DNA from: Escherichia phage kvi
Sequence record: MN850615.1
Direction: 5' to 3' (one strand)
Length of the DNA: 64,000 nucleotides
Part shown: one piece after another, positions 44,720 through 62,039 of the stretch
Numbering within the stretch: position 1 is the first letter of the stretch
Layout: each line of letters begins with the position of its first letter
Notes under the pieces: generated by a model
Databases searched by the model: none
What the model saw: only the letters and a program-made list of their open reading frames with translations
Told to the model about the DNA's origin: nothing
Made by a program: the position numbers and the translations under genes

Positions 44720-45044
44720 CTTTTTGTTCCATGAAAAGCGGTGCTGTTTCTTCTTTCAGTTTAATAACTAGCGCGGAAACTTCATCAAGAAAATCTTTTT
44801 CCATATGAGCAAGCATTGATTTAGAATCTTTGATGACTTTCAAAGAATATTCACTTAGATTTCCTTTTCCTAACAATAATGCAGGATACACACTATGTGG
44901 GATCTCGATTTCATGATATTCGCTCATAGTATAATATTTGTGAATTTTTAAATCTATATTTCTTCGTTGTACGTCCACATCAGCAATGACATACAGAAGT
45001 TCGATTTTATCGCTTTTCTGGGAAAGGGTAGCATTCAAAAACAT
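44715..45044 (-). CDS. Hypothetical protein
   Basis: 109 aa; downstream of promoter at 45074. Confidence 0.5.
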   Translation of the reverse strand: MFLNATLSQKSDKIELLYVIADVDVQRRNIDLKIHKYYTMSEYHEIEIPHSVYPALLLGKGNLSEYSLKVIKDSKSMLAHMEKDFLDEVSALVIKLKEETAPLFMEQKG

Positions 45045-45073
45045 TGTTAATCCTCCTTTGTTTCGATGTGTGT

Positions 45074-45101
45074 ATTATACATTACCGCGCCAGCATGTCA
45101 A
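45074..45101 (-). promoter_or_regulatory. Early promoter (TTGACA-16-TATAAT)
   Basis: rc of TGTCAA..ATTATA. Confidence 0.55.
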
Positions 45102-45163
45102 TATATTTTTCATAAAAATTTAGGCAATAAAAAAGCCTCCCCGAAGGGAGGCTGTAAAATTCA

Positions 45164-46138
45164 TTACATCGCTAACAGAGAGTCCAGGTCATCCAGATCA
45201 GAAGCGGAGGAAGTACCGCCACCCAGGTCCAGAGATGCCATCAGGTCATCAGCGGAAGAATCTAACGCCGTGCTAGCTGCGTTAATACCAACTACAGTGC
45301 TAGCTGCGGTCATACCAGAATCGAATGCATTCATCTGTGCGTCAAAATCGTCAAGCTGGCTGTTAATCGCTGCCGCAGCACTGGAAGCCGCAGCACCAGC
45401 TACCATAGAAACGCCCATAGTTTTCTTAAATTTGGTTTCCAGTTCATCGAACGGTTTAAACTGGCTAGGCGCTACAATCTCACTCAGATCAACCATGTTT
45501 TCCATCAGATATTTCTGATATGCTTCGTCTTCAATTTTCGGAAGCTGTGATTGCTGCATGAAACGAGAATCATCATAGTTCTGGTGTTTATCAACCTTCT
45601 TAGCTTTCAGGAGGAAGTTAGCACCGGAGAACACACAAGTTACATCTACCGGAACTTCGCCCATATCGGTATTCACGTTCACCATCGCAACGATCTTATC
45701 ATAAATTTTCTGACCGAAGCGGAATTTGAATACCTTACCTTCATTTTCTGGCGCTTGAGGATCTTTCAGTACCAGAATATTTGCGTAGTAAGAGGCTTTA
45801 CGCTTAATCAGTTGCCATTCGGTTTTATCGGTATTGTACAGGTCTTTTTCGTTAATATATTTGCACACAGGGCAAGAATCAAAATCACCGTGGGTGCTGG
45901 AGCAGTTTTCCCAATACCATTTACCATTAACTTTGAAGGAATGGTTTACCAGTTTCACAATCGGCAGACCGTCTTCTGTCTTAGACGGCAGGAAGCGAAT
46001 CAGGGCTTCACCGTTACCTGCTGCATCAGTCTTAATCTTCCACTCTTTCGGATCTTCTTTGGAGAAACCGTTGCCACCTTTCAGTGCGGCCAGTTGAGCT
46101 TGCAGTTTGGAGCTATCTTGACGACGAAACATGTTCAT
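45164..46138 (-). CDS. 32: Single-stranded DNA-binding protein gp32
   Basis: 324 aa; [19 protein letters not shown] zinc site, acidic C-terminus. Confidence 0.95.
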
Positions 46139-49742: not shown

Positions 49743-49780
49743 AATATATCATCCTCTTTTGTTTCTATCAAGCCTTATTT

Positions 49781-49788
49781 TATAAATA
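49781..49788 (+). promoter_or_regulatory. Late promoter motif TATAAATA for gene 34
   Basis: Exact TATAAATA 29 nt upstream of gp34 ATG. Confidence 0.5.
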
Positions 49789-49816
49789 TGAACATACTAT
49801 AAAAGGAGACCCAATA

Positions 49817-52800
49817 ATGGCAGATTTTTCTCAACATTTCAAGGCCACATTTGGCTTTGACGCTGGTAATGAAAAGGTCGTCAATGTAGCATTGGCTGAT
49901 AAGAATGTCAACACCGATGCGGTCAACGTTGAATTTTTCAATTACCATAATGGTATTACTCAGTATGACACAACTCGCGGTTATGATCAATACGGAACTA
50001 CAATCTATCAAAACCGTCCGTATTATGCAAAAGAAGATATCACAAAGCCAGCAGGTGATTTTGACCCGACTAAATGGCAAGCACTGCGCACGGACCCACG
50101 TTGGGATTATATTGCAGCAACTTCCGGTGATACTCCTTTACAGTCTGGTGATTATATCGCAGCAGATGGTCAATTTGCAAACTTGACTTTCTCTATGCCA
50201 ACTAAACCAGCAGAGGGAGACACTATAACAGTAAAAGATATCGGTGGCAAGTGTGGTGTTAACGAATTATCGTTCTTGAGTACAGGACATGAGTTTTACC
50301 ATAACGGTAATGTGTACAACCGAAAATGGTATTGCACTACCCCGTATGCAATGAACTATTTCATCTTTGTTCGTAATCGTTGGCATGTTTATCAGACAGG
50401 AACAGAGCCACGCGGTGTGTACGCACAGCCAGCGATTGATGCTATTCAAATGCAGAATGGTGATCAGGTATTTCGTCGTAGTTCGTTGGGTAATATTACC
50501 TTAGTGCTTCCTAAGTTTGCCAACAATGGCGACATGATCCAGACTACAGACCTTGACGGATTAACCGCAACCAACCACGTTACGGTTAAAGTTCATGAGC
50601 ACGCAGAAGAACAATCAATTGGCACGTCCGGTCTAAAAGAGATTATCGGTAAGCGTAGCGGTCATGGTGTATTCATCTTTGACAAGACGGAAAACTTATG
50701 GCGTTTGTGGGATGGTGATCAGTCTGTTCGTCTTAAACCGATCATCGATGACACTCGCTTGCAACCTAATAGCTATGTTGCTGTATTTGGTGATCGTGAT
50801 GTTACTCTGACGCTGCCGACCAATGTCGAGCCGGGTGATCGTATTCAAGTTTCTATGCAGTATATGAACGGAAACCAGAATTGCCGTATTATCACCGCCA
50901 CAGAGGATACAAAAATCCTTATGCAGAAAAACATGGTTCAGTTTCCTAAGCGTAGCGAGTACCCATTCAATGGGACCGATACATGGACGGGAGTATCTGA
51001 ATTATCTTTCAACGCTGCAAATGATTATGTACCTTATCTGGAGTTCTCTTATTCAGAAGGTGATGATGGTAAGAAATACTGGTTGGTGGCACATGCTCAC
51101 CCGATTGTAGAACGAGTAGATCCGACTCGTAAAGATCGTGTTGGTGTAATTGCACTGGCTACCCAGACTGAAACGAATAAAAATCATGAAGATAATCCTA
51201 GCGACGAAGTTGCGGTGACTCCAAAGGTTCTGGCTAATAAAACAGCCAACGAAACTCGACGCGGTATTGCTCGCATTGCGACTCAAGCGGAAACGCATCA
51301 AGATACTGGTTCCAACTTCCTGGATGATGTTATCGTTACGCCTAAAAAGTTAAATGACTGTGTTGCTACCGAAGCCCGTCGTGGTGTGATGGAAATTGCA
51401 ACTCAACATGAAACCAATGAAGGTTTAGACGATACCCGCGCTATTACTCCTAAGAAATTAGAAGAACGTCGCGCTTCCGAAGATCTCGCTGGTATTGCTG
51501 AAATTGTTCAGGCTGGCGGCAGTGCTGCCGCTCGACGTGGCGAAGCTGGTACAGGGATCTATAACATCAATGACCATGCTAAAATTGTTACGCCAAAAAA
51601 CATCAACGAAGTCAAGGCGACCGAAACTTCCCGTGGTGTTGGCTATCTGGCAACTGACGCGGAAGTGCAAGGGGCTACAGAATCAACCCCGCAAGATGCT
51701 TTACTCATCACGACTCGCACGCTAACGAAACGTACTGCTACCGAATCGCGCACTGGTATCGCTGAAATTGCAACTCAGGAAGAAACAAACTTAGGTCAAA
51801 GTGATAACCATATCATCACGCCTAAAAAGCTGCATACTCGCCGCGCAACGGAAACTTTACACGGTTTAGCAGAAATTGCAACTCAGCCGGAATTTGACGC
51901 AGGTCGTGACGATTCTCGCATTTCTACCCCATTGAAGATTAAAACCTTCTTTGAGAATGCACAGCGTTTGAAAGTAGATCCGACTCAGGGGCTTAACCTT
52001 ACTGGTGATTTGTGGCAAGGTATCATGATCAGCGGTCTGGATGCAACCGAAGACACAAAAGGTGTCGCTAAAGTTGCTACTACTCAGCTTACGGATGCGG
52101 GTCAAGATGATACTACAATCATCACGCCTAAAAAGCTGCAAGGCAAAAAGGCAACCGAAGGTAAAGAAGGTATTATCCGAGTTGGTACTCAAGCCGAAAC
52201 CGTGGCTGGTGCACTGGCTAATGTAGCAATTTCTCCGAAGAACTTCAAATATGTTGTTCAGACAGAGGATACATGGAAAGCAACCGAATCGCGTCGTGGC
52301 TTCTTGAAAGTTGCTACTCAGGAAAACTGTTTTGTTGGTGATAATCTGCAAGGTTCTACTCAAGAACTAGGAAACTACCAGCATGACGGAATTGCTGTTA
52401 CCCCGAAAGGATTAAACTACGCACTTGCTAATTTCTTACCTAAGATGGCAACCGCTCAGAATAGTTTGAAATTGGGTAACGTAGAGGCCGCTAAATGGGC
52501 GCGTAGAGACATTGACCAGACCATAGAGAGCAATTACACGTTTAATAAAAAAGTTAACGTGAAGGGCGATTTAGAGTGCTTAAAATCAGGTTCCTTTGAA
52601 ACTCTGTCTGTGACTAAGAACTCGACCGATGTTCCGAGTAATGGTCATCTGGTGTTGGGTGAGCGTGGAGTTGACGGTCACACCGGAATTACTCTGCATG
52701 GCACAACCGCATCGGAAGGCATGAAAAACTCTTGGTCTATTATCGTTGGTGGTACTGGAACAGCGCAAGTTGTTGATAGTGATGCTATCGCTTTCGGTAA

Positions 52801-53557
52801 AATCAATGATGGTGGAGTCGTTGAGCATTACGCCTTTGCTATGAAACACAATGGCGACGCGACAGCATATAGAGACTTTATTGCAGGTCGTAACCTGTAT
52901 GCGAAACAAGGCGGTTTATACATTGTTGACCAGTCTAATCCGGCAATGACTCGTTCCCCAGATGGTATGCTGAATATCGGTCACGGTGGAAGTGTTAACA
53001 TCAAGGCAGGGCATCAAACGTTAACTACAGAGATCGCCGGACAGAAGTATCAGATCGTACACGCAGGAAACGCTGACGAAGTTCTTAACCGTCAGTTTGT
53101 TAAGAATGCTGGCGATACAATGGTCGGTAAGCTGACTATGGATAATGCGCCTATTGTTTCTGTTAAGCATGAAGCTAGCGCGGCAACCGCTCCGGCAATC
53201 GGTAACATCGGTTTCTGGAATATGCGAGTTACTACCCAGAACATCAAAGAAACTTATCCAGAGAAGAAAAACGGTACTCTGATGCAATGGGGTACTGACG
53301 CGGACGGGCTTACCCAGCTTTGGTCCCCTGATGGTACTCATAAACATTATATCCGTTCCGGTACTGGTGGTCAATGGACCGCATGGGGTGAAATTTACAC
53401 CAAACAGAATAAGCCTACCGCTCAGGAAATCGGGGCAGTAGTTGCAGAAGGTGGTTTAATGAACTCTATGACGGTTCGTGACTGGATCAAAGTTGGTAAT
53501 GTTAAAATCATCGCCAATAATCTGACTCGTACCGTAGACTTTATTTGGGAAGACTAA
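49817..53557 (+). CDS. 34: Long tail fibre proximal subunit gp34
   Basis: 1246 aa; repeated ATQAET/IATQ motifs; size and position. Confidence 0.9.
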   Translation: MADFSQHFKATFGFDAGNEKVVNVALADKNVNTDAVNVEFFNYHNGITQYDTTRGYDQYGTTIYQNRPYYAKEDITKPAGDFDPTKWQALRTDPRWDYIAATSGDTPLQSGDYIAADGQFANLTFSMPTKPAEGDTITVKDIGGKCGVNELSFLSTGHEFYHNGNVYNRKWYCTTPYAMNYFIFVRNRWHVYQTGTEPRGVYAQPAIDAIQMQNGDQVFRRSSLGNITLVLPKFANNGDMIQTTDLDGLTATNHVTVKVHEHAEEQSIGTSGLKEIIGKRSGHGVFIFDKTENLWRLWDGDQSVRLKPIIDDTRLQPNSYVAVFGDRDVTLTLPTNVEPGDRIQVSMQYMNGNQNCRIITATEDTKILMQKNMVQFPKRSEYPFNGTDTWTGVSELSFNAANDYVPYLEFSYSEGDDGKKYWLVAHAHPIVERVDPTRKDRVGVIALATQTETNKNHEDNPSDEVAVTPKVLANKTANETRRGIARIATQAETHQDTGSNFLDDVIVTPKKLNDCVATEARRGVMEIATQHETNEGLDDTRAITPKKLEERRASEDLAGIAEIVQAGGSAAARRGEAGTGIYNINDHAKIVTPKNINEVKATETSRGVGYLATDAEVQGATESTPQDALLITTRTLTKRTATESRTGIAEIATQEETNLGQSDNHIITPKKLHTRRATETLHGLAEIATQPEFDAGRDDSRISTPLKIKTFFENAQRLKVDPTQGLNLTGDLWQGIMISGLDATEDTKGVAKVATTQLTDAGQDDTTIITPKKLQGKKATEGKEGIIRVGTQAETVAGALANVAISPKNFKYVVQTEDTWKATESRRGFLKVATQENCFVGDNLQGSTQELGNYQHDGIAVTPKGLNYALANFLPKMATAQNSLKLGNVEAAKWARRDIDQTIESNYTFNKKVNVKGDLECLKSGSFETLSVTKNSTDVPSNGHLVLGERGVDGHTGITLHGTTASEGMKNSWSIIVGGTGTAQVVDSDAIAFGKINDGGVVEHYAFAMKHNGDATAYRDFIAGRNLYAKQGGLYIVDQSNPAMTRSPDGMLNIGHGGSVNIKAGHQTLTTEIAGQKYQIVHAGNADEVLNRQFVKNAGDTMVGKLTMDNAPIVSVKHEASAATAPAIGNIGFWNMRVTTQNIKETYPEKKNGTLMQWGTDADGLTQLWSPDGTHKHYIRSGTGGQWTAWGEIYTKQNKPTAQEIGAVVAEGGLMNSMTVRDWIKVGNVKIIANNLTRTVDFIWED

Positions 53558-53590
53558 TTAAAGGGGGCGAAAGCCCCCTATGGGGTTATT

Positions 53591-54730
53591 ATGACACAAG
53601 AGATAGAATTACGCAACACTGGAATTAGGTTTGCGCATTTCGACGAAGACTCTGCGACATTTACCAGCATTTCAGAAAATAACTCTGTGATGTATAAGCT
53701 GGAAGTGCGCGGATCTAATGCGGATTCTACCAAACCAGCAAGAATTAGATTTAATGGAGTGGAGATCGTCGGGACTGGCTATGAGACTGGCCTAAACTTT
53801 AAAGTTTTTACTCCAACTGGACAATTGCACGAAGAAAAGGTATTCTATGGTCGTGGTGCTGTATTGGCAATGCGTGATTATCTTTATTTGCTAAAAGGCG
53901 ACTATATCATTGCGATGGCAACGCATGGAGAATTGTTTGCAGATCCGATAAGTGATGATATATTTTCTAAGCTGGGATCTGTATCATTCCCGAATCACAT
54001 TTTGCTACAGCAAATGCCTCGTGTATCCTATGCAGCAATTTATTCTACTAAAATGGGTAAAATTGTGTGCGAAGGGATGCAAGCAACTCACGGGGAAGGT
54101 CAAGATTCGTCTATACAGATCGAGAAAGTTTATGATACTATAGACGATCTTGCAATAACAGGAACACCACAACGATTTTTAGATTATCCGGTTGAGTATG
54201 TTAGCGAAGATTCCGAACATTTCGAGCTAATACAATGGCCTCGTGATGAGACCAGCGCCCCACTTGAGGATTTTAACATAAAGGCAGGTGACAAACTATC
54301 AATATCCTTTGAATTGTTCCGTGATAGTGCCGCAGCCGCAGCCAACGTAACAGCGCGTTTCTATCACAACTACTTCACCGATGGACAATATCAAACTGGT
54401 GTTCGATACAATGCCAGCAAAAAAGACCAATGGGAAAAGTTTGAAGCCGTCTATACCGTACCGGAAGGAGTTGATAGTGTAGTAACTGGTTGTATCAGAT
54501 ATCCAACCAACTCCAATGAAGGTATTGTTAAAATTAGAAACATACTAATAACGCCGATCAGTGGAGTCGTCAAAACTACTGGTCCTACTTCATTTGGTGT
54601 TAATGGTGTTAGAACAACTCATATTCAGGATAACGGTGATTTTACTAACCCTGTAATGAGTCTTCTTAAACTACCCAGAGATAATAAACACATCACATCC
54701 AACAACTTTAAAGAGTTCGATGTTGATTAA
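53591..54730 (+). CDS. 35: Long tail fibre hinge gp35
   Basis: 379 aa; position and size. Confidence 0.8.
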   Translation: MTQEIELRNTGIRFAHFDEDSATFTSISENNSVMYKLEVRGSNADSTKPARIRFNGVEIVGTGYETGLNFKVFTPTGQLHEEKVFYGRGAVLAMRDYLYLLKGDYIIAMATHGELFADPISDDIFSKLGSVSFPNHILLQQMPRVSYAAIYSTKMGKIVCEGMQATHGEGQDSSIQIEKVYDTIDDLAITGTPQRFLDYPVEYVSEDSEHFELIQWPRDETSAPLEDFNIKAGDKLSISFELFRDSAAAAANVTARFYHNYFTDGQYQTGVRYNASKKDQWEKFEAVYTVPEGVDSVVTGCIRYPTNSNEGIVKIRNILITPISGVVKTTGPTSFGVNGVRTTHIQDNGDFTNPVMSLLKLPRDNKHITSNNFKEFDVD

Positions 54731-54741
54731 CATTTTTAACA

Positions 54742-54770
54742 AGCCGATCCATGTGGTCGGCTTTATTTTT
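54742..54770 (+). terminator. Terminator after gene 35
   Basis: AGCCGATC..GGTCGGCT hairpin followed by TTTATTTTT. Confidence 0.55.
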
Positions 54771-54892
54771 ATACAGTTGGTTAAATTGTAACCAAAACGA
54801 AGAAAGATCTTTAGAATAATAGAAAATTTGTTTCGGTTAAAAAGTAGTCAGTGCCTACGGCACGTCGCGAAGCGATATTTTGTTAACATTCT

Positions 54893-54900
54893 ATAAATAC
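54893..54900 (+). promoter_or_regulatory. Late promoter motif TATAAATA for gene 36
   Basis: Exact TATAAATA 32 nt upstream of ATG. Confidence 0.5.
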
Positions 54901-54932
54901 TCGGAACTATAACTAATTTTTGAGGTTACTTT

Positions 54933-56423
54933 ATGGCAGATTTGAAATATGGATCTACTGTAGGTGGATCTCCCATTTGGACGCAAGGAAACTTGACGAT
55001 CCAGCCAGCGGGGGATCAGCTTTTCTACAAAGGTCATAAAATCTATACCGCTTTTGATAAACCTTCGGCTGCCGATTTTGATGCTGTTAGTGCATCCGAA
55101 GGTGGCACATTTCAAAAGCAAGTTCATTTCGAGGAAGGTTTAAGCGTAGGTAGCGCATCGGCTGGAGAAACCAAAAAGAACGGGATCTTTAAAGGAAATA
55201 GTGATGCGGCTAACTTTGATGGTGTAAGTTGGGGTTTGCATTCGTGGAAATCTATTGGTTTTGTTAATGCCCGTGATGGCGTTATCATGGCTTATATTGA
55301 CACTACCACAGGTGATTTTAAAACTAAAGGGACTATCGAAGGGACAACCATTAAAGACACAGGTCAACGCGTCTATAGCCCTGTTAATAAACCAACGAAT
55401 AATGATTTAGATTTGGTGTCTCGTCGCGGTGATACCCTCACAGGAACATATAATTTAAACACTGTCACTGTTAAACTATCGGTTGATTCGAAATTAATTG
55501 CAAGGGAACGTGATTTAATTAATTTTGATGCGACTAAGATCTATTATGGTAACGTTCTTGATACGTTGGTCTTCCGAAGTAAAGATGAGCCTACCATTTT
55601 TGTTAATGGTAAAGAAGGTCGTTTTTATCACACCAACAATAAACCAACTAAAGCCGATGTGGGACTAGGCAATGTCACCAATGATGCACAGGTTAAACGT
55701 GCTGGTGATATTATGGAAGGTAACTTGCAAGCGCCTAGAATGTTGGCGACAAACGATCCGGCTGGTCCTAATGAATTGGTTCGTTTGAGCTACTTTGAGA
55801 AAAAATCAATGGTAGCAAATCCATCCATCATTGGAAACGTTGATTGGAACACTCTTATTAATCGCGGTATCTATCGTGTGGAAAATGCTGGGTCGGGTAC
55901 TAATAAACCGTCTGATAGCTATTATAACGGCGTTTTGATGGTATATCGCCCAGAAGATGCTGTCGGTACTCGTCGAATTGTTCAGGTATACTATCCTGAA
56001 TCTATTGATCATCCGATGTGCTGGCGTTCTTGTTCTAATGAATCATGGACTGTATGGAACTATGTAGATCACCGTAAATTGGCTGATATTCGCTATGTTA
56101 ACGTAACTGGCGATACCATGACAGGACCGTTAACTGTTCCGGCGGCAAATGGCGTTAAAACGGCTAGCGGTGCATATAATGGTGATAACTACTATGCTGG
56201 ACTTAATAGCTTAAATGGTACAGCAATGATTCATCGTGTTAGCGATATTAAAGCGCACGAGAAACTAGGAATCACACATGATTCTAAAATTATTTTCGTT
56301 AAATCTCGTGGCAATACTCAGGACACCGATACCTTTGAATTATACCACGAAGGACATAAACCAACTCCTGATGAGGTTGGCGCGGTTCCGCTCAATGCGG
56401 TAATTGATTTTGGTACTTTCTAA
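54933..56423 (+). CDS. 36: Long tail fibre distal connector gp36 (enlarged)
   Basis: 496 aa; N-terminus MADLKYGSTVGGS.IW.QGN matches T4 gp36, which is only 221 aa. Confidence 0.8.
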   Translation: MADLKYGSTVGGSPIWTQGNLTIQPAGDQLFYKGHKIYTAFDKPSAADFDAVSASEGGTFQKQVHFEEGLSVGSASAGETKKNGIFKGNSDAANFDGVSWGLHSWKSIGFVNARDGVIMAYIDTTTGDFKTKGTIEGTTIKDTGQRVYSPVNKPTNNDLDLVSRRGDTLTGTYNLNTVTVKLSVDSKLIARERDLINFDATKIYYGNVLDTLVFRSKDEPTIFVNGKEGRFYHTNNKPTKADVGLGNVTNDAQVKRAGDIMEGNLQAPRMLATNDPAGPNELVRLSYFEKKSMVANPSIIGNVDWNTLINRGIYRVENAGSGTNKPSDSYYNGVLMVYRPEDAVGTRRIVQVYYPESIDHPMCWRSCSNESWTVWNYVDHRKLADIRYVNVTGDTMTGPLTVPAANGVKTASGAYNGDNYYAGLNSLNGTAMIHRVSDIKAHEKLGITHDSKIIFVKSRGNTQDTDTFELYHEGHKPTPDEVGAVPLNAVIDFGTF

Positions 56424-56427
56424 TATT

Positions 56428-56451
56428 AGCGGGGATTCTCCCCGCTTTTCT
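56428..56451 (+). terminator. Terminator after gene 36
   Basis: GCGGGGA-TTC-TCCCCGC followed by TTTTCT. Confidence 0.6.
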
Positions 56452-56491
56452 AAATAATATTATTCTAATAACCGTTTAAGGATTTTATAAA

Positions 56492-59260
56492 ATGGCAGAT
56501 TTAAACAGAATCCAGTTTAAACGCACTAGCGCAGCCGGACGTAAACCGGATGCTGGTACGATGAATCCGGGAGAGTTGGCAATTAACTTAGCAGACCAAT
56601 ATCTGCTTACAAAAAATGATGATGGGCAAATTGTTAATTTAAGCTGCCCTCCTGTTTATGATAAAGGCTTTAATGTAAACGGTCGTGTTGTTGTAGATGA
56701 CCTTGTGTGGAGTAATACCGCAAACTATTTCGATGATCCGACCGCACGAAATCTTGATAAATTTGGGGCGTTTCGTACTAATGATATGGATGGTCATCTA
56801 GCATTGGCTTTGCATATTCCCCATCCTAGCGGTATAAATCATGCTCGTGGGTTGGATTTTACTTATGGTTCTAACGTTGTTCCTACTGTAAAAACCTATG
56901 GTTATAACGCTGATGGTGTATTGGCATATTCATATCGCATGTATCACGAAGGTGATAAGCCTAGTCCGTCAGAATTGAATGTGTACAGCAAACAAGAAGT
57001 AGATCGGATGTTCCAGAAGACCATCAACTTTGGTGTAGAAACTGGATGGTTTAAAATTGCTACCGCCATTATTCCGCAAAATGATGGACGTAGCTTGAAA
57101 ATTAGATTGATTGGTGGAAATGGGTGGAACGTAGGACAAACTGGACAATGTAATATTATTGAACTTGTTATAAGGACTAGCAACGGTTCGCCTAAAGGAA
57201 TTAACTTTGTTGCGTATCATCATGTTTCTGGTTACGAGAATCAATTTTGTGCCATTAATACAAGTGATGACACTTATGATATCTATGCATATTACTTCGA
57301 ATTTACTAATATGGTAATGGCTGAATATCAAGCGTCTACCGGTGTTAATTTAACTGTACTTGATCGACCTGAATATGTAGGCGAAAAACCTGTAGCTGAT
57401 CATATCTATGATGCATATACAATACACTCCTTTAACAGTTTCAGTAACCGTGGGACATTAAATTTTGCTGGAAACCATCAAGGCCAATATGACATTGAGC
57501 ATATGAACGAACAACCGACAAATGCTAAAAATATGTTGCGTCGGTTTAGAAGCTCTGCTCTTGCCACTATCTGGCATGAAACCGTTGATGACCAGAATTA
57601 TCGTCTTGCCACTGGCAGTACAGATTCAGGTCAACAATTATTGCTGACAACAACCGGGTTACATGTCAAGAGATTAACATTGGATGGTGGTGCTGCGGGT
57701 GGAAATGCTGGTATTGATATTCGTCGAGGACCAAACGAAGCAAGCCATTTTAATTTTATGGATTATCGCACTGGTCAAGATGTTCGTAATGGCTGGTTTG
57801 GTTTTGGTGATTTGACGACCAAAGATTTTATTTGGTGGAACGATAACGGTCAAAACTCGATAAACTTGGTCGAAAACGGTGAATTACAGATTTCTGGTGG
57901 TAAAGGCCAGAAAATTGTAATGAATAGCGAAGTTGCATTATCTGAAAATGCTCGTTTGGCTGTTAGAGGTGGTAATTATGGCGTGATATTCCGTAATGAT
58001 GGAACGAGCTTTCATCTGCTTACTACCGATTTAAAAGATTCTTTTGGTAATTGGAATAATCGCAGACCGTTCAGTTATGATTTCGCCACTGGTGGATTAT
58101 ATTTAGGTGGTACTGACACCGCACGTTGTTTGCATCTGGGAATTGATGGTAGTACCCGTATCGAGGATAACTTAGTTTTCAGGGCGGGATCTCGTCAATC
58201 AATGGACTACTTAGAATTTGTTCATTGGGGGGCAAGCAATGTAGGTCGAAATAACGTTTTAAGTCTTCGTGACTCAAAAGGGTTTTTAGCAGAATTTGAG
58301 CGTAAAGGTGATAACACCATTCAAAATACATTCTTCGGAAGATTTAAAGTCAATGGTGATTCTAACGTTATTACCATTAATGCTCCTACTGATTCTGATG
58401 CTGTTTATGTGAAAGGTACTTGTAATGATGTAGATAACTGGTATATCGGTAAAGGTGGTGCTGGTAATGGATTAGTTTTTTGTAGTTATAAGACTAATGC
58501 GGCTGTTCATCTCACAGATAATGGTGAGATAGCACTTGCGCCACAAAATTTTAATAATGTTAGTATTAGCAAAGACCGCATCTATATAAACGCTACACAG
58601 TGGGTTGCTAATCATTCCGGTGCATGGGACGGACAATGGCGCGAAGAAGCACCTATCTTTGTTGATCAGGGTAGTGTTGGAGAAGATAGCTATTATCCAC
58701 TTATTAAAGGACATAGCCAGATCACAGGTCAAGGTTATTCTACTAAGGTTGACTTTGGCTTACGTCGTACTCCCCAAACATGGGGACAAGCTGTTATTCG
58801 TGTTGGTTCTGCGGAAAACTCGCCAGCGGCTGGTCATCCTCAAGCTGTATTCGAGTTCCATCATGATGGTACTTTCTATTCTCCGGGTAATGGTAACTTT
58901 AACGATGTTTATATTCGTTCTGATGACCGTCTTAAGATTAATAAAGAAGAGTTAGAAAACGGAGCACTTGAAAAAGTATGCCGTCTGAAAGTTTATACTT
59001 ACGATAAAGTTAAGTCTATTAAAGATCGTAGTGTGATTAAACGTGAAGCTGGTATTATTGCTCAGGATCTTGAAAAAGAATTGCCGGAAGCTGTATCGAA
59101 AGTTGAAGTTGATGGATCTGACGTACTGACAATTTCTAACTCGGCAGTGAATGCTCTTTTAATTAAGGCTATTCAGGAAATGAGTGAAGAAATTAAAGAA
59201 TTGAAAACTCCTTTCTTTACTAAAATTGCTCGCAAAATTAGTAAATATTTTAAATTCTAA
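56492..59260 (+). CDS. 37: Long tail fibre distal subunit gp37 with C-terminal S74-type chaperone
   Basis: 922 aa; N-terminus MADLNRIQFKRT matches gp37; C-terminus SDDRLKINKEEL..VYTYD resembles the intramolecular chaperone. Confidence 0.85.
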   Translation: MADLNRIQFKRTSAAGRKPDAGTMNPGELAINLADQYLLTKNDDGQIVNLSCPPVYDKGFNVNGRVVVDDLVWSNTANYFDDPTARNLDKFGAFRTNDMDGHLALALHIPHPSGINHARGLDFTYGSNVVPTVKTYGYNADGVLAYSYRMYHEGDKPSPSELNVYSKQEVDRMFQKTINFGVETGWFKIATAIIPQNDGRSLKIRLIGGNGWNVGQTGQCNIIELVIRTSNGSPKGINFVAYHHVSGYENQFCAINTSDDTYDIYAYYFEFTNMVMAEYQASTGVNLTVLDRPEYVGEKPVADHIYDAYTIHSFNSFSNRGTLNFAGNHQGQYDIEHMNEQPTNAKNMLRRFRSSALATIWHETVDDQNYRLATGSTDSGQQLLLTTTGLHVKRLTLDGGAAGGNAGIDIRRGPNEASHFNFMDYRTGQDVRNGWFGFGDLTTKDFIWWNDNGQNSINLVENGELQISGGKGQKIVMNSEVALSENARLAVRGGNYGVIFRNDGTSFHLLTTDLKDSFGNWNNRRPFSYDFATGGLYLGGTDTARCLHLGIDGSTRIEDNLVFRAGSRQSMDYLEFVHWGASNVGRNNVLSLRDSKGFLAEFERKGDNTIQNTFFGRFKVNGDSNVITINAPTDSDAVYVKGTCNDVDNWYIGKGGAGNGLVFCSYKTNAAVHLTDNGEIALAPQNFNNVSISKDRIYINATQWVANHSGAWDGQWREEAPIFVDQGSVGEDSYYPLIKGHSQITGQGYSTKVDFGLRRTPQTWGQAVIRVGSAENSPAAGHPQAVFEFHHDGTFYSPGNGNFNDVYIRSDDRLKINKEELENGALEKVCRLKVYTYDKVKSIKDRSVIKREAGIIAQDLEKELPEAVSKVEVDGSDVLTISNSAVNALLIKAIQEMSEEIKELKTPFFTKIARKISKYFKF

Positions 59261-59297
59261 CAACAAGGGGGCAACGCCCCCCTTTGGAGTATAAATT

Positions 59298-60077
59298 ATG
59301 GCAGTAGTTGGTGTTCCTGGTTGGATTGGAAGTTCAGCCGCAAATGAAACAGGGCAACGATGGATGAGTCAAGCGGCTGGTCAATTAAGATTGGGTGTTC
59401 CTTGCTGGATGAGTCAATTTGCAGGTCGCTCGCGAGAAATTATTCATACACTTGGTGCAGACCATAACTTCAATGGTCAGTGGTTCCGTGATAGATGCTT
59501 TGAAGCAGGTAGTACACCTATAGTGTTTAATATCACTGGAGATTTAGTATCATATTCTAAAGATGTTCCTTTATTCTTTATGTACGGAGATACACCGAAT
59601 GAATATGTTCAGTTGAATATACACGGCGTAACGATGTATGGACGTGGCGGTAATGGCGGTAGCAATGGTCCTGGATCAGCCGGGGGGCATTGTATTCAAA
59701 ATGATATTGGTGGGAGACTAAGAATTAATAATGGTGGAGCTATTGCAGGTGGCGGTGGCGGTGGCGGTGGCGGTAACAGGGGTCGACTAGTATTTGGTGG
59801 TGGCGGTGGTCGCCCATTCGGTGCTGGTGGGTCTTCCTCGAATATGGGTTCTGGTGCAACCGCTGGCACTATTTACGCTCCGGGTCAAGGATCTGTTGGT
59901 TCGGGGTCTCTTAGTGCATATACAGGCGGTGCGGGCGGTAACGTTGGTGCTGCTGGAGGAAGATGTAATACTCACGGTAACGGTACAGAATATAACGGCG
60001 GAGCTGCTGGTTATGCTGTTATAGGGTCTGCTCCAACGTGGCAAAATCGCGGAGCTATTTACGGACCGGCTGTTTAG
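59298..60077 (+). CDS. 38: T2-type receptor-recognising adhesin gp38
   Basis: 259 aa; N-terminus [17 protein letters not shown] and glycine-rich motifs. Confidence 0.85.
59748..59776 (+). repeat. (GGTGGC)n codon repeat in gp38
   Basis: Tandem GGCGGTGGC units encoding poly-Gly. Confidence 0.6.
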
Positions 60078-60140
60078 ACGCAATTATAAAAAGAATTAAG
60101 GAAAACTCCCACGGAAGGGAACTACTAAGGAGAAACGGCT

Positions 60141-60380
60141 ATGGTCTATAATATCGTCATTGGTGCTTTGTCTAATTTCGGAATGAAACTATTGTCAAAG
60201 TTAATTAGTGAAAAGATGCTCACTAAAATTTTCTTCTATTGCGCTCGTCGTCTTGCGGCTTATACCAATACGCCAATTGATGATCGTTTTGTGGAAGAAC
60301 TTTATAAGGAGTTTAATAAAGATCAGTCAGAAGATAGTAACGAGCAAGATAAACCTAGTGATAGTCAACTACCTAAATAA
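60141..60380 (+). CDS. Hypothetical protein between 38 and t
   Basis: 79 aa; AAGGAG SD; hydrophobic N-terminus, acidic tail. Confidence 0.45.
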   Translation: MVYNIVIGALSNFGMKLLSKLISEKMLTKIFFYCARRLAAYTNTPIDDRFVEELYKEFNKDQSEDSNEQDKPSDSQLPK

Positions 60381-60413
60381 GAGTACACTGTCATAGTTAT
60401 CTTAGGGCATTAT

Positions 60414-61070
60414 ATGCAAGTTTCTGAAAAAGGGAAAGACTTTGCTATCTCAAATGTCCTGCGCGCTATTTTCACAACTAAAAGCACGGAGTTGCTCGTA
60501 CTTCGTGTTTTTGCTGCCGTCGTGTTGTCCATATTAGCATTTGTCGTTTATAGTAAAAACGAGTTATTTGCGCTTTATAAAGAGACTCGTTATGAGACTT
60601 ATGCTCACATTCTCCAGGTAGAGAAAGACCGCAATTTTGATAATGCAGCACAGGAGCAGTTACAGATAGTTCATGTGTCGGCTGATGCCGATTTTTCTGC
60701 TGTTTTTAGTTTTCGTCCGAAAAACCTAAACTATTTTGTTGATTTGGTGGCATATGAAGGAAAGCTACCGCATACAATCGATGAAAAAAATTTAGGTGGA
60801 TTCCCTATCAATAAAACGAGTGAAGAATATCGTAGGCATCTTTTAGGTAAATCCTATTTTACCGATAAAGATTTCCAGTATATTCCATCAAGAGAAAAGA
60901 AATTAGAGAATATCGATATAGGTTTCATGTATTCTTGTCCTATATTCAATCTCGATAATGTCTATTCTGGTAGTATCGCCATTTCATGGAAGAATAAACC
61001 GGATATTGACATTGAGAATTTAGATACTCTTTGCAATCAATCTGCCAGAATCCTCGGAAGGATTAGATAA
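60414..61070 (+). CDS. t: Holin T
   Basis: 218 aa; LQIVHVSADADFSAVFSFRPKNLNYFVDLVAYEGKLP and LCNQSARILGR match T4 holin. Confidence 0.9.
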   Translation: MQVSEKGKDFAISNVLRAIFTTKSTELLVLRVFAAVVLSILAFVVYSKNELFALYKETRYETYAHILQVEKDRNFDNAAQEQLQIVHVSADADFSAVFSFRPKNLNYFVDLVAYEGKLPHTIDEKNLGGFPINKTSEEYRRHLLGKSYFTDKDFQYIPSREKKLENIDIGFMYSCPIFNLDNVYSGSIAISWKNKPDIDIENLDTLCNQSARILGRIR

Positions 61071-61076
61071 CTTAAA

Positions 61077-61108
61077 GGGGAAGCCTTTCGGCCTCCCCTT
61101 CTTTTTAT
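61077..61108 (+). terminator. Terminator after t (convergent junction)
   Basis: GGGGAAGCC-TTTC-GGCCTCCCC followed by TTCTTTTTATT. Confidence 0.6.
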
Positions 61109-61353
61109 TGGCGCATAGACGCGCCTGAATCGCATTTTGACGCTGTATGATGAAAACAGGTAGCGTACCAGTCATCGGCTTGTTTGTCTTCGTCAGAAAA
61201 CGCGTAATTGCGTTGTATGCCGTTTTCTACTTTGACCAGTGCAATAGCTGTTTCTGGAAGATCAATCAATCGGACAAAATCGCCATCTTCCCATTCTACA
61301 CGAGCAATATCATAACCCATCTCAAAATAAACAATCGCTTGCTCTAATCTCAT
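61105..61353 (-). CDS. Hypothetical protein
   Basis: 82 aa. Confidence 0.45.
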   Translation of the reverse strand: MRLEQAIVYFEMGYDIARVEWEDGDFVRLIDLPETAIALVKVENGIQRNYAFSDEDKQADDWYATCFHHTASKCDSGASMRQ

Positions 61354-61697
61354 TCTGGAAACTTCCCGTAAACATTCTCTGCCAACTTACGTGCATCGCT
61401 AATAATATCTTTCATGTGATGGTCGTATTGCTTTGCCATAATAAGAATACAATCAATGAAGAATGAATAACGTCTAGAATTTACTAAAAAGTTTTTACCT
61501 AGTGAATCAAACGGATCTGGATCATCAAGTTCGATAGATTCTCTAACTTTAGACAATTCTTTCATTACAAGGTTTACATCGTTTATAATATCTTTTGATT
61601 TATATGCGCCTTTCTTTAACAATATGGCGGTCAATTCTGACGCAGTTTCTTGAAATTCTTTCTGATAAGCTGAGTTTACATCATCGATATTAAACAT
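61350..61697 (-). CDS. Hypothetical protein, tandem paralog 1
   Basis: 115 aa; MFNIDD...ENVYGKFPE. Confidence 0.5.
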   Translation of the reverse strand: MFNIDDVNSAYQKEFQETASELTAILLKKGAYKSKDIINDVNLVMKELSKVRESIELDDPDPFDSLGKNFLVNSRRYSFFIDCILIMAKQYDHHMKDIISDARKLAENVYGKFPE

Positions 61698-61706
61698 AAT
61701 CGCCTC

Positions 61707-62039
61707 TCAAATATTGCCGTAAATGTTTTCAGTCATGGTTCTTGCTTCTTCCAGCATTTTGGTCATGCTCATGGTGTAGTTGTTATCTCGTACAGACTTA
61801 ATAACGACAAGCAAGGAATCTAGGAAAACTTTATATACTCTCCATTTTACGCTATTGTTGAATAGTTTTATATCTTCTACTTTATCGATCAGATAACCTA
61901 AAACAGATAGCGCCTCGTTCACTTCTTCCGTTACTTTACTGCCACTAAACCAGATGGGGTAAAGCTGGATTGACAGCGACCGTGCTGCCTCTTTCAGTTC
62001 GGTCGCCTTCCATGATTCATATTGATCAAAGTTAAACAT
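61707..62039 (-). CDS. Hypothetical protein, tandem paralog 2
   Basis: 110 aa; MFNFDQ...ENIYGNI. Confidence 0.5.
   Translation of the reverse strand: MFNFDQYESWKATELKEAARSLSIQLYPIWFSGSKVTEEVNEALSVLGYLIDKVEDIKLFNNSVKWRVYKVFLDSLLVVIKSVRDNNYTMSMTKMLEEARTMTENIYGNI

Follow-up and report, generated by a model that had tools for sequence, protein, structure and literature searches.

Which protein at the far end of the long tail fibre determines the hosts that a T4-like phage can infect, and which receptor does this protein bind? The question is raised by the tail-fibre genes of Escherichia phage kvi (sequence record MN850615.1), of which a stretch of 64,000 nucleotides (nt), referred to here as the window, was analysed. 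An initial annotation of this DNA had drawn attention to positions 56492-60077, which are exactly genes 37 and 38 (products gp37 and gp38), and had proposed that the host-range determinant encoded there is of the T2 rather than the T4 type. The present analysis indicates that the region is very probably the distal long-tail-fibre module of a Krischvirus coliphage, built on the plan in which gp38 is an adhesin, with OmpA as its receptor, and with an enlarged gp36 that is a trait of the genus. That the host-range determinant belongs to the gp38-adhesin (T2/T6) class, and not to the T4 class, is supported by sequence comparison, because gp38 matches the adhesin family and two structures, has no likeness to T4 gp38, and is encoded beside a gp37 that carries an S74 chaperone. 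The genus was assigned from a 24.8-kilobase (kb) query upstream of the fibre genes, which is 96-97.5% identical in nt sequence, over 85-98% of the query, to pEJ01, kaaroe, JSE and RB49; by this comparison, the window is from a Krischvirus (RB49-like Straboviridae) coliphage.

gp38 is a member of the adhesin family

The gp38 protein matches two Pfam families well above their cut-offs of 25 bits: PF05268 (GP38; E = 1.5e-69, 234.6 bits) and PF21721 (Gp38_N; E = 5.7e-20, 71.5 bits). It also matches the PHROG family phrog_2056 (3e-107). Over its full length it aligns with the structure of gp38 from S16 (6f45_D; 3.5e-50), a phage that binds OmpC. Its amino acids (aa) 38-258 align with the structure of gp38 from PP01 (9v85; 7e-77), which likewise binds OmpC (PMC12892980). 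Glycine accounts for 25.5% of all residues and for 36.6% of those in aa 115-259; the glycine content of gp34, gp36 and gp37 is about 10% each. The glycine-rich motifs (GRMs) of T2-type adhesins, which had been recognised in the initial annotation, number five (GRGGNGG at aa 115-121; aa 146-159; aa 166-178; aa 210-221; and NGGAAG at aa 233-238). All five are invariant over six gp38 proteins, whereas the intervening hypervariable segments (HVSs) differ. In the analysis as a whole, comparisons were made with T6, T2, NBG2, Phi1, MIZ4 and Skers. From these alignments, gp38 is predicted to have the same three-domain fold as S16 gp38, i.e., an attachment domain, a beta-helix domain and a polyglycine-II sandwich. 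An AlphaFold model of the identical protein from phage FL20 has been published (PMC12032242).

The T4 gene in this place encodes an unrelated chaperone for assembly, and it is the needle at the end of T4 gp37 that binds the receptor. If gp38 of the window were such a chaperone, the receptor-binding site would have to be borne by gp37, and the sole argument for this is the position of the gene 3′ of gp37, as in T4. Alignment of the two gp38 proteins gave no similarity (BLASTP E = 1.7), and T4 gp38, used as a control, has no match to the Pfam GP38 domain that scores so highly here; furthermore, gp37 of the window lacks the domains of the T4 needle and has an S74 chaperone in their stead. A chaperone role of the T4 kind has practically no chance of being correct and is refuted at the level of sequence.

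Within the adhesin class, gp38 of the window shows 80% overall identity to that of T6, the N-terminal 158 aa being almost the same, and 93% identity to gp38 of the T6-like Tequatroviruses NBG2 and EV240. T6 itself binds Tsx, and HVS2 to HVS4 of its gp38 differ from those of the window by an insertion (YYSPF) and a 4-aa deletion. T6, NBG2 and EV240 have the backbone of another genus, Tequatrovirus, in which gp36 has 218-221 aa. The architecture of T2 is the same as that in the window: gp37 has an S74 domain (PF13884, aa 1243-1300), the gp38 adhesin is encoded directly 3′ of it, and the glycine-rich motifs of the two gp38 proteins align in register. However, identity to T2 gp38 is only 50% and is confined to the first 145 aa, no relationship exists between the hypervariable segments, the gp37 of T2 has 1341 aa and a different tip, and T2 has the other of the attachment-domain subtypes of Trojet et al. 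2011 (PMC3157838). Judged by the attachment domain of gp38 and the tip of gp37, the subtype in the window is T6-like, not T2-like. Thus, the proposal of a T2-type determinant was correct as to the class of adhesin, but not as to the subtype.

gp37 ends in an S74 chaperone behind a T6-type tip

The C-terminal segment of gp37 had been described in the initial annotation as resembling an S74-type chaperone, and this is borne out by a match to PF13884 (Peptidase_S74) at aa 810-868 (1.4e-11, 45 bits, cut-off 22) and by alignment with the chaperone of S16 gp37 in 6f45_A. The segment is 100% identical to that of FL20. A predicted catalytic dyad, Ser810/Lys815, lies in NDVYIRSDDRLK with the spacing S810-x4-K815; we take these two residues to be the dyad, with Lys815 as the general base, from what is known of MEROPS family S74. 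The motif NDVYIRS810DDRLK815 is kept in gp37 of T2, T6, NBG2, Phi1, MIZ4 and Skers. The Pfam controls behaved in keeping with the two classes: in T4 gp37, Collar (7e-11) and Phage_fiber were matched but S74 was not, gp37 proteins of T2, NBG2 and Phi1 have the S74 domain, and in gp37 of the window neither Collar nor Phage_fiber was found. The family matches of gp37 and gp38 are strong, and chance does not account for them.

The last 306 aa of gp37, comprising the tip and the chaperone, are 70% identical to the C-terminus of T6 gp37 and alike in both parts. Residues 672-809 form a T6-type tip domain that is present in 431 phage records, and it is to this tip that gp38 would be expected to attach. 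As this stretch has no sequence match in the PDB and differs from the S16-like tip of NBG2 and Phi1 (Phi1 gp37 has 980 aa), it had come under suspicion of being a novel partner of gp38; in view of its T6 type and its 431 records, this was rejected. Between this tip and that of S16, no similarity could be detected in sequence. Trojet et al. 2011 described that the attachment-domain subtypes of gp38 travel with matching C-termini of gp37 (PMC3157838), and this rule fits the window because the gp38 N-terminus and the gp37 tip are both of T6 type.

At the other end of gp37, the junction with gp36 is made by a conserved N-terminus, aa 1-75 (44% identity to T4 gp37), and the shaft has a Gp34_trimer-like region (aa 429-529) and a match to gp37_trimer (aa 625-678). 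Between shaft and chaperone, gp37 (922 aa here, 924 aa in FL20) is a mosaic in comparison with FL20: aa 350-800 diverge, aa 651-800 are only 62-78% identical, and the minimum of 62% is at aa 701-750. Within the divergent stretch, pieces of different affinity are put together: one is 96.9% identical to G37-3 and another 92.5% identical to G2248. On this sequence evidence, the patchwork is the typical mosaicism of fibre genes, here in the form of a new mosaic variant.

The enlarged gp36 is a trait of the genus

The initial annotation had listed the size of gp36 (496 aa, compared with 221 aa in T4) as one sign of the adhesin type. The lengths were given correctly, although the gene lies upstream of the region to which they were ascribed; the enlargement, for its part, is real but is shared by the genus, including Phi1. 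Over its whole length (496/496 positions, E = 0) gp36 matches phrog_16472. Its N-terminal part resembles the gp36 of T4-like phages in general: aa 1-171 are 39-42% identical to gp36 of T4, T2 and NBG2 (39% and 1.8e-30 by BLASTP for T4), with a marginal match to PF03903 at aa 57-153 (26.9 bits, cut-off 26), and a likeness to the C-terminus of T4 gp36 is seen at aa 251-294. Residues 172-496 constitute a genus-specific extension, for which neither a Pfam match (even at E <= 10) nor a PDB match was found. Four junction motifs of the form Y..(N/H)KPT..D.G occur, at aa 43, 153, 237 and 476.

An AlphaFold2 model of the gp36 monomer, built from an alignment of 22 sequences, has a mean pLDDT of 45, which is to be expected for a single chain of a trimeric fibre; only a compact domain at about aa 296-380 reaches about 70-80. 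In Foldseek searches against the PDB, the model gave weak matches to the C-terminal fibre of T4 gp34 (E ~4e-4, TM 0.12-0.15) and to 6ct8, the fibre of the R2 pyocin (184 columns, TMt 0.31). These results may point to a fibre with a knob-like domain. Labelling the compact domain a pyocin knob was considered and rejected, the Foldseek matches being weak; nor is the name "pyocin knob domain-containing" transferable, since the proteins that bear it align to aa 129-265 of gp36 and not to aa 296-380.

Could the large gp36 be peculiar to this phage and bound up with its type of adhesin? Comparison with T4, T2, T6 and NBG2, with 218-221 aa each, would give that impression. However, gp36 of Phi1, MIZ4, Skers and FL20 is 496 aa long in every case, with 90-98% full-length identity to that of the window, whether gp38 adjoins gp37 or is situated about 55 kb away, and full-length homologues of 492-508 aa are found down to 50% identity. 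That the large gp36 is peculiar to this phage and tied to its adhesin is therefore barely credible, and gp36 as a phage-specific oddity is refuted by the conservation throughout the genus. The 496-aa gp36 is a genus-wide trait of Krischvirus, independent of the location of gp38; since this gp36 is also found in Phi1, where gp38 is encoded at another site, the size of gp36 says nothing about the type of adhesin. In combination with mature gp37 (809 aa), gp36 gives a sum of 1305 aa for the distal half-fibre, compared with 1247 aa in T4, which is consistent with a large gp36 and a shorter gp37 making up a half-fibre of ordinary total length.

gp38 is a chimera of three parts

Sliding comparisons of nt identity revealed three segments in and around the gp38 gene. 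From window position 59120 to 59720, i.e., from the chaperone end of gp37 through the spacer and into gp38 as far as GRM2, the sequence is 87-100% identical to NBG2 and 40-72% identical to Phi1. From 59740 to 59980, identity to Phi1 gp38 rises to 88-98%, as against 80-87% to NBG2, and 3′ of GRM5 the gene returns to the NBG2 type. The junctions are in the polyglycine GRM2 (aa 146-159) and at or near GRM5 (aa 233-238). At the protein level, the cassette from HVS2 to HVS4 has approximately 93% aa identity to the RB49-like gp38 of Phi1. By sequence, then, gp38 is a three-part chimera, in which an insert of RB49/Phi1 type is flanked by Tequatrovirus (T6-like) segments. Recombination at conserved glycine-rich motifs is the mechanism described by Tetart and by Trojet (PMC3157838). 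The N- and C-terminal segments of gp38 jointly form the beta-helix domain (PMC12032242); because both flanks build this one domain, they stay of one type while the loop-bearing insert between them is exchanged.

OmpA as the probable receptor

In protein sequence, gp38 and its FL20 counterpart are 100% identical (the genes differ at 5 nt, all synonymous), and FL20 does not form plaques on MG1655 from which ompA has been deleted (PMC12032242). In the same study, FL20 was placed with FL12 and FL18 in a group of narrow-range, "type 2" OmpA binders, which infects only OmpA variants 1, 3 and 4. RB49, to which the HVS2-4 cassette is akin, is dependent on OmpA (PMC9569957). EV240, whose gp38 is 93% identical, is an OmpA/HepI phage, and its gp38 from HVS2 onwards turns a Tsx phage into an OmpA phage (bioRxiv 10.64898/2026.04.02.716166). 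From these three independent lines (a gp38 identical to that of FL20, an RB49-like cassette, and the close relationship to EV240 gp38), OmpA is inferred to be the primary receptor of this phage on rough E. coli K-12, with the narrow "type 2" specificity.

Several points weigh against this reading of the module or narrow its reach. Homology or identity is the basis for proposing that gp37 is cleaved at Ser810, that virions contain gp38 and that OmpA is bound. The pairing rule for gp38 and gp37 is not strict, as NBG2 joins the same gp38 N-terminus to a different, S16-like gp37 tip. The compensation in length between gp36 and gp37 is an arithmetical argument. In the work on RB49, plasmid-borne OmpA complemented the Keio ompA knockout but not phage-resistant derivatives (PMC9569957), which leaves room for an OmpA-dependent co-factor. 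Lastly, an RB49-like gp38 can take certain O antigens as receptors, so that "OmpA" may be an incomplete answer for smooth hosts, and whatever the gp37 tip may contribute to host range could not be extrapolated from FL20. These last two points each lead to an alternative.

According to the first, OmpA would be the receptor on rough strains only, and O-antigen types would serve as alternative primary receptors on smooth strains, as they do for the small adhesin of RB49, Cognac49 and Whisky49 (PMC9569957). The HVS2-4 cassette of the window is of that kind: it includes E231 and Y232, which correspond to E230 and Y231 of RB49, where the substitutions E230K and Y231S alter host range (PMC9569957). 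FL20, with the same gp38, has a narrow range in the ECOR collection (6-10 of 72 strains), which was explained by variants of the OmpA loops, and for FL20 no dependence on O antigen was reported (PMC12032242). A role for O antigens as primary receptors is accordingly unlikely on the whole, albeit with a serious claim to attention.

The second alternative is that the divergent gp37 tip adds to host range, such that the specificity differs from that of FL20 despite the identical gp38. In its favour are the low identity of aa 651-800, next to a chaperone and a gp38 that are both 100% identical, and the patchwork of pieces closest to G37-3 and G2248, a usual signature of selection on fibre genes. 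Against it, in the S16 structure, reportedly that of Dunne et al. 2018, gp38 is said to cap the gp37 tip, which is held away from the receptor. Porin-specific k-mers have been found in both Gp37 and Gp38, with Gp37 domains specified only for OmpC-targeting phages, whereas exchange of gp38 from HVS2 onwards is by itself sufficient to switch the porin receptor fully (bioRxiv 10.64898/2026.04.02.716166). A tip contribution is thus distinctly improbable, and OmpA, bound by gp38, is retained as the probable receptor.

Two placements of gp38 in Krischvirus

In Phi1, the gp38 gene (44989-45765) is on the opposite strand and some 55 kb downstream of gp37, and a homologue of the 79-aa open reading frame (ORF) takes the place 3′ of gp37; in RB49, likewise, a homologue of this ORF takes the g38 position (PMC3157838). 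In the window, gp38 and the 79-aa ORF are both present between gp37 and the holin gene. FL20 has the same gene order as the window and carries a single gp38. At the site of Phi1 gp38, the 909-base-pair (bp) segment that fills Phi1 44911-45819 is replaced in FL20 by 37 bp (record positions 56151-56187), between flanks that are 95-97% identical; the site is precisely empty. In the FL collection, gp38 is beside the holin gene in FL04, FL15 and FL20, but not in FL37 and FL38 (npj Viruses, PMC12032242). It appears from these sequences that there are two mutually exclusive placements of gp38 in Krischvirus: distant, by about 55 kb (RB49, Phi1, JSE), or adjacent to gp37 (FL20 and the present window). 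The empty distant site is known from FL20, the corresponding locus of the present phage lying beyond the window; a second copy of gp38 was sought in the window and none was found.

How might the adjacent placement have arisen? Possibly, although we hold this only tentatively and at less than even chances, the lineage regained a gp37-adjacent gp38 by intergeneric exchange with a phage of T6 type, then received the ancestral OmpA cassette of RB49 type within this gp38, and lost the displaced copy. It has been suggested, on the basis of five phages, that the displacement of gp38 goes back to the Krischvirus ancestor (bioRxiv 10.64898/2026.04.02.716166).

Relationship to other phages

The closest counterpart of the module is in FL20 (PP400781.1, Krischvirus), with 96.1% nt identity over window positions 49782-61474 once the ends of the FL20 record are joined. 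Apart from the shaft and tip of gp37, the differences are small: gp36 differs at 10 of 496 aa, and gp34, gp35 and the holin at few residues. Upstream of gp34, FL20 has about 570 bp that are absent here (window 49760-49782, FL20 1122-1692). This insertion, which carries an annotated putative homing endonuclease fragment and a small ORF, is situated between a small ORF on the rnh side and gp34. At the opposite end, among small leftward ORFs 3′ of the holin gene, window positions 61474-61707 have no alignment to FL20, with flanks that are 94-96% identical.

With RB49 and Phi1, the window shares the genus backbone, the 496-aa gp36, the S74 segment of gp37, the small ORF before the holin gene and the OmpA-type HVS2-4 cassette; the N-terminus of Phi1 gp38 is T2-like, with 47% identity to gp38 of the window over aa 1-114. 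With T4, it has in common the gene order 34-35-36-37-38-t, the late promoters before genes 34 and 36, and the conserved N-termini of gp36 and gp37 (39% and 44% identity); it differs from T4 in gp38, in the end of gp37 and in the length of gp36, as set out above.

Organisation of the locus

Seven co-oriented genes on the plus strand span window positions 49817-61070: gp34, gp35, gp36, gp37, gp38, the 79-aa ORF and holin t (Table 1). The gp34 protein is 96-97% identical to those of MIZ4 and Phi1, and the 79-aa protein is 98.7% identical in MIZ4, Skers and Phi1; the latter has a moderately hydrophobic N-terminus and an acidic C-terminal tail. An NCBIfam search gave no match for gp36, gp37, gp38 or the 79-aa ORF. 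Residues 67-134 of gp35 have a weak Pfam match to ILEI (interleukin-like EMT inducer; E = 8e-4, 20.3 bits, cut-off 27), probably due to a shared beta-rich fold or to chance. Further patches of mosaicism occur in other fibre genes: the N-terminal part of gp34 (window 50217-50800) is 80-83% identical to MIZ4 and 98-100% to Phi1, and in gp36 (patches at window 55417-56200 and 56017-56400) identity to MIZ4 is 76-84% in the middle and C-terminal part, and identity to Phi1 is 70-85% at the 3′ end.

Table 1. Features of the long-tail-fibre module (positions are those of the window)
Feature	Position	Strand	Details
Late promoter box of T4 type, TATAAATA	49781..49788	+	29 nt 5′ of the gp34 start codon
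gp34, proximal subunit of long tail fibre	49817..53557	+	1246 aa; phrog_972 over full length, E = 0
gp35, proximal hinge connector	53591..54730	+	379 aa; phrog_1154, 5.9e-126
Terminator-like hairpin and U-tract, 3′ of gp35	54741..54763	+	-12.6 kcal/mol, z = -4.1
Late promoter box, TATAAATA	54892..54899	+	34 nt 5′ of the gp36 start codon
gp36, distal hinge connector in its enlarged Krischvirus form	54933..56423	+	496 aa; phrog_16472
Stable GC-rich hairpin, gp36-gp37 spacer	56428..56446	+	-14.3 kcal/mol, z = -4.35; followed by UUUUCU
gp37, whole ORF	56492..59260	+	922 aa
gp37, mature part (predicted), distal fibre subunit	56492..58918	+	aa 1-809
gp37, C-terminal intramolecular chaperone (predicted), Peptidase_S74	58919..59260	+	aa 810-922 and stop codon; PF13884
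gp38, monomeric tail-fibre adhesin	59298..60077	+	259 aa; PF05268 and PF21721
gp38, attachment domain, T6-type			aa 1-42
gp38, beta-helix domain (predicted)			aa 43-114 and about aa 239-259
gp38, glycine-rich motifs and hypervariable segments, polyglycine-II sandwich (predicted)			aa 115-238
gp38, specificity cassette of RB49/Phi1 type (HVS2-HVS4)	59740..59980	+	sliding nt identity
Small conserved ORF	60141..60380	+	79 aa; phrog_402, no function known
Holin t, downstream limit of module	60414..61070	+	218 aa; PF11031, 4.5e-61

Exact matches to the late promoter box TATAAATA number 7 in the 64 kb, a total that is not above chance expectation; the box at 49781 was therefore taken as a promoter because it is placed immediately 5′ of gp34, not because of the count of matches. 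The hairpin at 54741-54763, at the same place as an annotated terminator in NBG2, probably splits the transcription unit 34-35 from the unit 36-37-38. The late boxes before gp34 and gp36, together with this hairpin after gp35, would thus divide the module into the two units 34-35 and 36-37-38, in the fashion of T4-like phages. The gp37-gp38 spacer is 37 nt long (59261-59297) and has a GGAG ribosome-binding site, so that the gp38 gene is directly downstream of gp37. Directly 5′ of this site, a GC-rich hairpin is found at 59266-59285 on the plus strand (-13.3 kcal/mol, z = -1.8). Possibly, this hairpin and that at 56428-56446 serve to adjust how much monomeric gp38 is made relative to trimeric gp37.

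A proposed mechanism of fibre assembly and adsorption

The following sequence of events is proposed. Late in infection, the promoter at 54892 would drive genes 36, 37 and 38, as suggested by the TATAAATA box and the terminator after gene 35. The gp36 and gp37 proteins would then build the trimeric distal half-fibre, the folding of the gp37 trimer being nucleated by the S74 chaperone, by homology with endosialidase-type chaperones and S16 gp37. After trimerisation, the chaperone would cleave itself at Ser810, with Lys815 acting as the general base, thereby releasing 112 aa. One gp38 monomer could then dock, via its T6-type N-terminal domain, on the exposed T6-type tip of gp37, in the manner of the gp37-gp38 crystal structure of S16. 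In the completed fibre, the polyglycine-II sandwich of gp38 would display the hypervariable loops that bind OmpA. Reversible binding by the long fibres would then cause the short fibres to be deployed, as happens in other T-even phages.

Significance

For the Krischvirus group, the arrangement of these genes, the large size of gp36 and the receptor have been described before, and experiments on FL20 have characterised the very same adhesin. What is mildly new is the three-part chimerism of gp38, the reciprocal occupancy of two gp38 loci, and a mosaic form of shaft and tip in gp37 that is itself new. The gp38 described here is a clean natural case of the model of Tetart and Trojet: a cassette has been swapped between genera while the beta-helix scaffold was kept. 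The window is a further counter-example to universal displacement of gp38 in Krischvirus, although not a new type of arrangement, and a regained position, if true, would contradict the suggested displacement of gp38 in the last ancestor common to the Krischvirus phages. Because experimental data exist for an identical adhesin, OmpA can be assigned as the primary receptor from the sequence alone, and this assignment aids the choice and combination of phages for therapy, and the foresight of resistance via ompA.

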